Positions 11,756 to 49,865 of a stretch of 64,000 bases of DNA are shown in pieces. The DNA is taken from contig OX597826.1 in the NCBI GenBank assembly GCA_951406725.2, positions 68,944,001 to 69,008,000 of the forward strand, read 5' to 3'. The position numbers and the translations under genes are program-made. Origin of the DNA: Octopus vulgaris. Its lineage: Eukaryota. The notes under the pieces are model-generated. The model was given only the letters and a program-made list of their open reading frames with translations. It did not search any database and was not told the DNA's origin. Positions within the stretch are counted from its first letter, which is position 1; each line of letters begins with the position of its first letter.

Positions 11756-11960
11756 ATCCAAACATGAAAACACAAAGAGAAAACACAACAACGCGAGGAC
11801 GTGGAACAAATAAAGTATTATTGGACGCTCAGGAAGGGAAGAAGGAAGGTTTAACGTTTCGAGTGGAGCTCTTCGTCGGAAACATAGGAGAAGGAAAGAT
11901 CCAGAGAAAGGAAGAAAGAGGAAAAAAAGTCGCCAACGGTACACACGTGGTCACATTTTG
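11751..11960 (-). mobile_element. Short PLE pseudo-LTR-type unit with minimal hammerhead (core ~11848-11883)
   Basis: Minus strand GTTT-CCGACGA-A-GAGCTCCACTC-GAAACGTT-AAAC; flanked by (TA)n on both sides; second copy at 33990-34190. Confidence 0.7.
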
Positions 11961-12106
11961 AATATATATATATATGTACAAAATTTAGAGGATTGACCAC
12001 TTAAAGTGGACATCTTGTATACTAGAAATAGACGTCAAAATCGCAATGGTGGATTTCGTTCGAGCGACCTGTATCTAGTTCTAGAAATTGTGTTTCGTAA
12101 ACGACA

Positions 12107-12186
12107 GACTTTGCTGATGATCTTGCAGATGTTTATGTATTCATATACGTAAATTATTAACAAGTGAAACTAATTAGTACATAGGT
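12107..12186 (+). ncRNA. Type I hammerhead ribozyme (copy 1)
   Basis: CTTTG-CTGATGA(12114)-T-CTTG[long hairpin]CAAG-T-GAA-ACTAATTAGT-A-CATAG; palindromic stem III; GUA site; one mismatch in stem I. Confidence 0.75.
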
Positions 12187-12640
12187 AATCGTTTTTTATT
12201 TCGTATATTTTCATTTGTCTTGCTTATTTTTATGCTTTGGTATTTTGCTGAATTTTTTCTTGAGAACACATTCTCCGTGGTAAATAGCGATTTTGACGTC
12301 TATTTCTAGTATACAGGCTGTCCGCTTTTAGTGGGCAATCCTCTAAATTTTGTATGTAAAATAATTTTTAATCTTCGGATGTTTTTAAATATACTAGACC
12401 ACTGGTTTTAATTGATTAATATCAATTTCTACCCTTATTTAATTTTAAATAAAAGATGTTCTCTAACCGGTAATTTGACTACTGTAGTTTATTAATTGCA
12501 GAGTAATTTCCGATCCCAGTGCGCCAAAGTGAAGGCATTTGAAAGATACACATAAATATAATTTGTGAAACTCTATGCAATGTTGGATTTCGGTCGAGCG
12601 ACCTGTATCTAGTTCTAGAAATTGTATTTCATAAATGACA

Positions 12641-12720
12641 GACTATGCTGATGATCTTGCAGATGTTTATGCATTCGTATACGTAAATTATTAACAAGTG
12701 AAACTAATTAGTACATAGGT
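12641..12720 (+). ncRNA. Type I hammerhead ribozyme (copy 2)
   Basis: CTATG-CTGATGA(12648)-T-CTTG...CAAG-T-GAA-ACTAATTAGT-A-CATAG; stem I CTATG/CATAG fully paired. Confidence 0.8.
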
Positions 12721-13643
12721 AATTGTTTTTTATTTCGTATATTTTCGTATATGGGCTACCATTAAGCAGCAACTGCTAGATAACGTTTATATAACATTCA
12801 CATCATAATTCGAATAATAATAATTCACCAGACAAGAGTTGAGAAACAATTGCTGTGATTTGCGATTAAAGACTTAATTCCATCTTGTTTTACAAATTTT
12901 TATATGTATATATATATACAAAGAGAGAGACGGGGTAGAGAGAGGCGAAATATTATTCAAAATAGTATTCAGTGTTAAATAGTGAGAGTGGTTTATAGTT
13001 TGGACTACTGGTACCTTCCAAAGTTCGAGATCATTAGACCATTTGCGATGTCTCTTCCAGTTCAGTAAGTTCAGACTTCATACAATACCGAGTCCAAATT
13101 TGCTTTTCATCGCTCCAATGTTGGAGCATATAAATAAATAAAGCACCTGTAAATTACAGAGTGACGGTTTATTCAACAATTTTTTTTTCAAAATTTTGAC
13201 TTTGTGCCGAAGTTGTTCGCAATATATCCTGGGAGTTGAATGTCTGCGAGAATCAGCTTTGCTTTCTATACAAGCGAAGTATTAGAGTCGATGTTATCGC
13301 CTAACGCCCACATCAGTTAGTTGGTCATGTACTTCACTGTGAAAACATCATCACTGTCATCTTCGAAGGCGTCAAAGCTATCATCATCATCTTCATCTGC
13401 AAACACAAAAACAACAACAGTAGTAGTAATAGTAGTAGTTTTGAATGTGGCATTTTTTGAAAATCTATGAATTAAATAACCCTGAAATGAGGAATTTCTT
13501 GCATTGTATATTGTTATTCTCCGACTTGTTGGTCACACATAACTCATAAGCAAACTTGAGAAAATGCATTTATTTCATCACAATTTTTTTTATAAGAATT
13601 AAGGAGGGTATGAATATTTTTGAGGACGACTGTATATATATAT

Positions 13644-13681
<38 letters not shown>

Positions 13682-13729
13682 GTGTTTGTATACTACACGT
13701 TTCCACATATATATATATATATATATGTA

Positions 13730-13966
13730 GAGGCGCAATGGCCTAGTGGCTAGGGCAGCGGACTCGCGGTCGTAGGATCGCGGTTTCGATTCCCAGACAG
13801 GGCGTTGTGAGCGTTTATTGAGCGAAAACACCTGAAAGCTCCACAAGGCTCCGGCAGGGGGTGGTGATCCCTGCTGTACTCTTTCACCACTCTTTCTCCC
13901 ACTTTCTTCTGTTGGGCTGCTCGCTTAGCCAGCGGGGTGGCGTCATTCGAAGGCTAAAACAATGCG
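13730..13966 (+). mobile_element. Family C SINE, tail variant 2
   Basis: Same tRNA head as 2684/17308/22006; different 3' part. Confidence 0.8.
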
Positions 13967-14579
13967 TCCTTACATACATATACGAAGGGGAGGCAAACAC
14001 TCCCGGCCGCCGGAACTGCATCTAGGGACACCGTGTTTCAGGATCATTGTCCTTCATCGGCCTAGAGTAGCAGACACCGGTCAGCTGGTGATATTTGCCT
14101 CGACTTCGTAATTGTATATATCTATATTCAGTGAAGTTTATTCACTGATTATCAAAATAAGAAATATTGAATTTCTAAATCTCTCGTAGAGACATGTACG
14201 GTGGTGGGGCGATAGAATGGTTGTATACTGTCAATCTAACAAGAATGTGACAGTAGGGGGTATTTCTTATTTTGATAATCAGTGAATAAACTTCACTGAA
14301 TATATATATATATATATCGATCCCAGCTGACCGGTGAAACACGGTGTCCCTAGATGCAGTTCCGGCGGCCGGGGGTGTTTGTCTCCCCTTCGTATATGTA
14401 TATAAGGACACAGGGAAAAATGTGTCAAAGCTATCAGGAGGCGTTCGATGCTTCCTAGGGCTATACAGCGGTGGTGTACCCCCTACTGTCACATTCTTGT
14501 TAGATTGACAGTATACAACCATTCTATCGCCCCACCACCGTACATGTCTCTACGAGAGATTTAGAAATTCAATATTTCT

Positions 14580-14581
<2 letters not shown>
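13966..14581. mobile_element. Two head-to-head, circularly permuted copies of a ~350-nt hammerhead-bearing unit (retrozyme-like)
   Basis: Minus copy 13966-14262 and plus copy 14261-14581 share all segments but start at different points of the unit; the plus copy begins and ends with TATTTCTTA. Confidence 0.8.
14017..14073 (-). ncRNA. Type I hammerhead ribozyme with C at core position 4
   Basis: Minus strand CTGC-TAC-TCTAGG-CCGATGA-AGGA-CAATGA-TCCT-GAA-ACAC-G-GTGT-C-CCTAGA-T-GCAG: 6-bp stem I extended past an internal loop, 4-bp stem II, GUC site. Confidence 0.8.
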
Positions 14582-14620
<39 letters not shown>

Positions 14621-15789: not shown

Positions 15790-15794
<5 letters not shown>

Positions 15795-16289
15795 AGGCCT
15801 ATAGGCCCTTATTGCTTGTTTTCCTGTCCTGTTTTCATTCCGTTTTATTCCTTCTGGTACTGTAATTTTTTGTAATTGTATTTTTATTTTGTATTTGTTT
15901 TAATTGTATTGTTTTTACGTCCTGTTTTTGTTACATTTTTTCCTTGTTTTTGCCCCTCTGCGAAGGAATTTTATTTAATTCCTTCGCAGGAAGGACTAGT
16001 TCTTCGAGACGTGTACTGTCCTACCTTCGAAACACGCTATAGTTGAACTAGGGACAGCTGATGAAGGGGATTTTTCCTGTGTAGTTGTCTTGTACTCTGT
16101 TTTTTCGTTGTTAAAAAATGGTCCGTTCCCTGCTTGTTTTTACTTTTTCGTTTTCGTTTTTCATTTAGTTCTACGTCTAATTGTGGTGTCCTGTACTCAC
16201 GTATATATATTTATATATGCATGTATATATACATGTAGATGTAGGTACGTACATATACGTGTGTATGTTTGCATATGTTTTATTTATTA

Positions 16290-48949: not shown

Positions 48950-49865
<916 letters not shown>

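Follow-up and report, generated by a model that had tools for sequence, protein, structure and literature searches.

What kind of insertion leaves two divergent, circularly permuted copies of a small non-coding hammerhead (HHR) repeat in a genome, and do these copies record a circular RNA template? The question is raised by a locus at 13,963-14,582 of a 64,000-nt stretch of Octopus vulgaris contig OX597826.1 (the whole stretch is referred to as the window), for which a preliminary description had proposed a circular or concatemeric RNA. The locus is an ordinary damaged copy of a 365-nt family. Its features are the following, with the base that follows the predicted GUC cleavage site taken as unit position 1:

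13727..13965, plus strand: SINE-like dispersed repeat joined to the minus arm; its final ~55-60 nt and its TA tail are missing
13963..14262, minus strand: minus arm, unit positions 130 to 365 to 64 (0.82 unit), with the expected end at 180 missing
14021..14066, minus strand: type I hammerhead motif of the minus arm, predicted to cleave after GUC, between 14027 and 14026
14261..14262, no strand: head-to-head junction, a 2-nt TA overlap
14261..14582, plus strand: plus arm, unit positions 226 to 365 to 235 (1.03 units), stopping at the distal fixed 3' site (235)
14323..14348, plus strand: site of a 36-nt deletion in the plus arm, which removes the HHR core and stem II, with TG microhomology
14528..14582, plus strand: 55-nt 'tail', from the proximal (180) to the distal (235) fixed 3' end of the family
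14581..14620, no strand: (TA)n and then (TG)n microsatellite, the right-hand insertion target

The two arms lie where they were first placed. The plus arm comes back to its own start, TATTTCTTAT being both its first and its last sequence, and the minus arm begins at TACCCCCTACTGTC, crosses the end-to-start junction of the unit and enters the hammerhead. The arms diverge from the TA overlap as described, and 106 nt (14157-14262 versus 14477-14582) are 100% identical between them (BLAST E 5e-51 in the window). There is also, as stated before, no credible ORF: the sole frame that covers the element runs from stop to stop over 124 aa, across the inversion junction. Other details change. The unit, given earlier as ~350 nt, is 365 nt long, the period of a natural tandem in L003 (30 natural monomers span 360-369 nt), and the HHR region assigned to the plus copy has lost its core and stem II through the 36-nt deletion. 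The junction of this deletion occurs once in the whole genome, at this locus alone, and the idea of a mobile HHR-less subfamily is therefore rejected. The minus arm halts early, at unit position 64, against the 3'-truncated SINE-like repeat, copies of which in L050 and L014 extend ~55-60 nt further and then into (TA)n. This repeat is labelled SINE-like from its tRNA-like look, and ARAGORN found no tRNA in it. Since the plus-arm core and the minus-arm end are lost, the locus has no monomer release of its own.

The HHR of the minus copy had been called intact; it is complete but not canonical. Its core is CCGAUGA (14060-14054), that is, U4C; its stem II (AGGA/UCCU) is short, with 3-4 bp, and closes A-U or has an extra A and U, whereas the canonical motif is CUGANGA...GAAA with G10.1-C11.1; and no Rfam match at gathering score was found in the window. 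Stem I is UCUAGG/CCUAGA, and GAAAC comes with a near-palindromic stem III, ACACGGUGU. A type I motif is present in each unit of the family and U4C is the family norm, found in 97 of the first 100 listed among 393 exact matches. Across loci, core position 4 is C in 127 and T in 7, and the T4 copies may reflect CpG decay. U4C cuts in vitro activity considerably, yet it permits viroid infectivity (PMC3088659). The stem III palindrome is perfect in one subfamily, which is the dimer-type design of PMC4209133, and, as expected for a dimer-type motif, the 81-nt HHR region by itself folds no better than shuffles (z -1.46), with stem III unformed. Folded as a circle, the whole unit has a predicted energy of -130 kcal/mol compared with -89+/-5 for 60 shuffles, and 98.8% of the cells of 26 natural monomers pair in the predicted fold. 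Covariation (3 of 109 pairs altered on both sides) is weak and confounded by kinship. The pairing of stem I and of a long flanking stem is kept across subfamilies, and this long stem would form in linear RNA too.

Hammerhead-like motifs are also found in other contexts. Another repeat family carries minimal motifs at 11879 (minus strand) and 34066 (plus strand) of the window with the core CCGACGA, in which position 4 is C as well, suggesting that U4C recurs in the Octopus genome. A solo 56-nt hammerhead of the 365-nt family, with the rest of the unit absent, lies at L061:1432-1486 (G000:C30), and its flank is also present in a contig from a presumed RNA run.

A genome-wide search for the exact core gave at least 393 matches for the family, and the reversed control gave 0. 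An exact-motif search, which undercounts mutated copies, detected 32 HHR dimers, including 3 consecutive pairs (trimers), and no array longer than 3 HHRs anywhere in the genome; no long master array was seen. We mapped 132 distinct loci, about a third of the family: a first set of 99, after dropping 16 overlapping fetches, and a second of 33, after dropping L168, the flank of which duplicates that of L159. These loci were chosen by best match or motif and not randomly, which favours long arms; the longest arm spans 3.37 units (first 99 loci). Ten tail-junction matches that had no listed HHR nearby were considered separately, and all proved to be ordinary unit copies. At L159 and L168 (G000:C11, ~8 kb apart, opposite strands) one insertion is present in duplicate together with its flank, a pair that probably arose by local inverted duplication. 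Related units in contigs of runs X1 and X5 (compared with L003:1431-1769) have another hairpin, of 27-30 nt, a sign that more divergent sister families exist.

With its 360-369-nt, non-coding unit in head-to-tail repeats, the family fits the 150-450-nt range of retrozymes, and like them it is dispersed, non-autonomous and devoid of LTR, with target duplications of more than 4 bp. The unit has no ORF encoding RT plus GIY-YIG, by which an autonomous PLE would be recognized. These features support the earlier view that the hammerhead repeat is non-autonomous and that its copies are multimeric and circularly permuted; judging from sequence, the element is a non-LTR retrozyme by its testable features, with a variant core. 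Nor are the copies always the pLTR of a long PLE, as arms continue into an ORF in 0 of the 132 loci.

The ends of the arms bear on the origin of the inversion. Among 215 outer 3' ends in the 132 loci, 98 fall at position 180+/-6, 88 at 235+/-6 and 29 elsewhere, so that 186 of the 215 lie on two fixed sites 55 nt apart. A head-to-head junction is present in 84 of the 132 loci. When both ends are available (83 loci), 59 loci pair 180 with 235, none pairs two ends at the same site, and 24, including the locus studied here, have an off-site end; each site is thus used by one arm in 59 of the 59 loci with two on-site ends (binomial p 3e-18). On-site ends adjoin (TA)n in 104 of 146 cases (first 99 loci), and target duplications of 6-12 bp are found in 6 of the 9 two-ended loci that are not (TA)n-flanked on both sides. 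The 5' ends, in contrast, are scattered, with 155 distinct positions in 232 arms. They do not pile up at the cleavage site (6 within 5 nt, 7.0 expected), which is crossed 207 times by arms. Some positions recur, namely 328 (7 arms) and 43, 84 and 110 (5 each), possibly as structure-linked stops or microhomology sites. The expectation that start points would be scattered round the unit is therefore borne out for the 5' ends but not for the 3' ends, and the permutation amounts to internal priming followed by read-through, as only the 5' ends are scattered while the 3' ends fall at two sites.

Further details come from 42 simple two-armed loci. The arms overlap by 1-4 nt at the junction in 26 of them, and 32 have a junction microhomology of 0-5 nt. 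In 21 of the 42 the 180 arm exceeds the other in length, which rules out fold-back on the 235 arm as a general mechanism. All 12 damaged loci of the first set keep the 235 end, but this one-sided damage was not repeated in the second set (7 keep 180 and 4 keep 235). Arm lengths are negatively correlated (rho -0.41), probably due to locus selection. A stop at position 181, which L1-type twin priming on one linear RNA would lead one to expect, is missing in most 235 arms.

A comparable arrangement is found in an autonomous PLE-like family, which has an 899-aa frame in its full copies, a tandem period of 3623 nt, TA targets and two fixed ends ~160 nt apart. One end per arm is seen in all 10 loci with both ends visible, among 33 loci retrieved (counted by eye). 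The protein is recognized by neither Pfam nor PDB, so the PLE label rests on atlas matches to HTH_animal/GIY-YIG clusters and on motifs by which we take the 899-aa frame to be a PLE. In a search for a partner of the 365-nt family, the best 150 scored matches were all this family, and more than 100 of these are identical over 125 aa. There is no alignable similarity between the 365-nt unit and this family, the one autonomous family compared, which therefore serves as a mechanistic control rather than as an established partner.

This family and similar sequences are also represented in the window. A piece of the family lies at 263-1294, and the region 263-1830 is an insertion of this very young family with two fixed 3' ends. 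By eye, fragments resembling PLE ends and containing CTGATGA were seen at 49765 (plus strand) and at ~15790-16200, the latter between TA runs. The HHR-like motif of the 899-aa family has a long stem II, and its stem III palindrome matches that of one 365-nt subfamily (by eye). A MITE-like region at 11977-12746 contains inverted arms of 71 nt, separated by 236 nt, as well as a direct repeat of 170 nt with a spacing of 534 nt.

The inversion is a family-wide rule with one arm per start site. The chance template switch proposed earlier does not account for it, since in 59 of 59 loci each arm keeps to a fixed site of its own and the autonomous PLE shares this behaviour. For the same reason, the arms are not in themselves the footprint of a circle, as they had been read, and correspond instead to the scar that PLE insertions normally leave. 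Self-priming on an antisense or cDNA strand, or a single template switch, would create the inverted arm with no second target priming, and self-priming has been proposed as its origin (PMC3846280). We consider this route unlikely: it would be in keeping with the 1-4-nt junction microhomologies in 26 of the 42 simple loci and with the fact that both arms always come from one subfamily, but it leaves the fixed site of each arm unexplained, the junctions join different unit positions and form no palindromes, and either arm can be the longer one (21/42). Two-sided priming appears to explain the inversion better than a one-off switch, and the strict pairing of sites agrees with two coupled primings whose products are joined through short microhomology. 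That the arms result from a local inverted duplication or an assembly artefact is extremely improbable; the 106 identical nucleotides, and the fact that the junctions of this locus are known from the assembly, could suggest it, yet the layout recurs with fixed ends in 84 of 132 loci on many contigs, with their own junctions and in some cases target duplications.

Could the copies instead derive from an autonomous PLE that escaped detection, as stubs of its pLTR truncated at the 5' end, with the tandems being partial tandems of that element? The tail, the inverted arm, the TA target and the dimer-type HHR are all features of PLE pLTRs, and the mapped loci cover about a third of the family. We nevertheless regard such stubs as very unlikely, given that the arms cross the HHR 207 times and re-enter the same unit and that no sequence is common, up to the junction, to the 38 free 5' flanks found in the first set. 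The 899-aa protein gave 2 tblastn matches among the loci, in L133 and L171, which are separate PLE-like fragments located beyond a TA run or ~800 nt away.

We compared the repeats at 24 non-CpG sites that are diagnostic of subfamilies. Mismatches amount to 22/999 between tandem repeats and 36/1338 between opposite arms, near the background at these sites (1.8-2.0%), compared with 33.5% between loci, and the repeats of one insertion therefore share a subfamily. Since the subfamilies rebuild uniform multimers without a long master array, the template would most likely be a monomer that is read repeatedly, either as a circle or through precise jumps. Rare alleles are mostly confined to a single repeat (290, versus 16 shared by repeats of one locus), so the repeats need not share one source molecule. 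There is no A>G excess among the shared rare alleles (2/16) and no sign of RNA editing in the family.

We give a circular template slightly better than an even chance; otherwise the template would be an uncleaved or jumped linear RNA. Tandems are no proof of a small circle because the autonomous family also makes head-to-tail tandems, of 3623 nt. A linear template, in the form of uncleaved multimers or of RT jumps between copies of one source locus, with the U4C HHR as a nearly inactive passenger, is a serious contender at somewhat less than even chances. For the PAc protein (Poseidon of Anolis), unprocessed RNA serves as the main substrate in vitro and no reads begin or end at the HHR site (PMC11167929). 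U4C is moreover fixed in the family (C in 127 loci, T in 7), and uncleaved RNA would equally give no 5' pile-up at the cleavage site. On the other hand, several subfamilies each have multimers with their own diagnostic changes in all repeats and no array exceeds 3 HHRs, whereas a linear-only lineage would shrink and show repeat-specific variants unless a re-multimerising step intervened. The pairing of stem I and the long flanking stem across subfamilies also argues against a mere passenger. Part of the unit is present in contigs of 14 runs presumed to be RNA, 4 of which were aligned. One loose end of the unit-bearing contigs maps to a single genomic flank, so that they can be explained by read-through of genomic copies. 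The second loose end has no exact genomic match, and none of its 16 one-mismatch matches adjoins the unit. The contigs, in which no ends, strand or circles are visible, were set aside as evidence of expression.

It is very probable that the locus represents one insertion of a non-coding family of the retrozyme type into (TA)n, likely by a PLE RT/GIY-YIG protein, with both cut strands priming at two fixed RNA sites. The enzyme would nick both strands of an AT-rich target; cDNA synthesis would begin from one 3'-OH at unit position 235 and from the other at position 180, in either case at UAU within a predicted loop. Each cDNA would then be extended back round the unit, across the HHR site, over as many as 3.4 units, and the two cDNAs would join by 0-5 nt of microhomology into head-to-head arms. 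For an HHR of the dimer type with U4C, slow cleavage is predicted, mainly in multimeric transcripts. The present copy would have lost the plus-arm core and the minus-arm end, together with the 3' end of the SINE, at insertion or later. A more elaborate version, which we put forward only tentatively and consider rather doubtful, is that a PLE dimer places two RT sites at different fixed points of one 365-nt circle and rolls on both strands, with U4C as a selected brake until a protein or the multimer triggers cleavage.

Both the element class and the insertion scar have already been described, and retrozymes have been proposed to be mobilised by PLEs (PMC7229834; 10.64898/2026.07.22.740005). 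What is added here is a counted genomic link: a retrozyme family and an autonomous PLE of one genome follow a common rule of two sites, one per arm, which supports the proposed mobilisation of animal retrozymes. A partial literature search found no published description of this family or of a one-site-per-arm count; the supplements of PMC7229834 and PMC4209133 list HHR families, which may include this one. The family data provide a clean test bed for PLE priming and predictions for the existing in vitro PLE assay, namely starts at 180 and 235 with one per strand, as well as comparisons of circle versus linear template and of C4 versus U4.

Metazoan non-LTR retrozymes, such as those of mussel with units of 350-390 bp, resemble the octopus family in their non-coding unit with a type I HHR, dispersed dimers and trimers, target duplications of more than 4 bp and co-occurring PLEs (PMC7229834; 10.64898/2026.07.22.740005). 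The octopus family differs in its fixed U4C core and in its arrays, which are never long. In the excerpted parts of the same two sources, fixed paired 3' ends and inverted arms are not described for retrozymes. The locus has a single complete HHR and therefore falls outside the 'active' class of Li et al.; in Xenopus, 8 of 9 retrozyme dimers did not cleave in vitro (10.64898/2026.07.22.740005).

Insertions of EN+ PLEs comprise an inverted, 5'-truncated copy and a one-sided tail (PMC8557442, PMC3846280). The same product is seen here, with 84 of 132 loci inverted and one arm per site in 59 of 59. The octopus family shares with these elements the head-to-head arms, the tail at one end only and the (TA)n bias (PMC8557442; PMC3846280), as well as 6-12-bp target duplications and the palindromic stem III of a dimer-type HHR (PMC4209133). 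Unlike them, it has no ORF, its tail is 55 nt long compared with 30-40, and the whole element is the repeat unit.

A biochemical counterpart is PAc, which in vitro cuts and extends both strands of AT-rich DNA and inserts independently of HHR cleavage, with a tail delimited by the two internal sites of the RNA at which its RT starts (PMC11167929). Two internal starts, extension of both strands, an AT-rich target and read-through of the HHR are common to PAc and the insertion route proposed for the 365-nt family. In the excerpted account of PAc (PMC11167929), however, the start site does not depend on the strand and starts occur without target homology, whereas in the 365-nt family no site is ever used by both arms of a locus and each of the two ends places TAT against TA.
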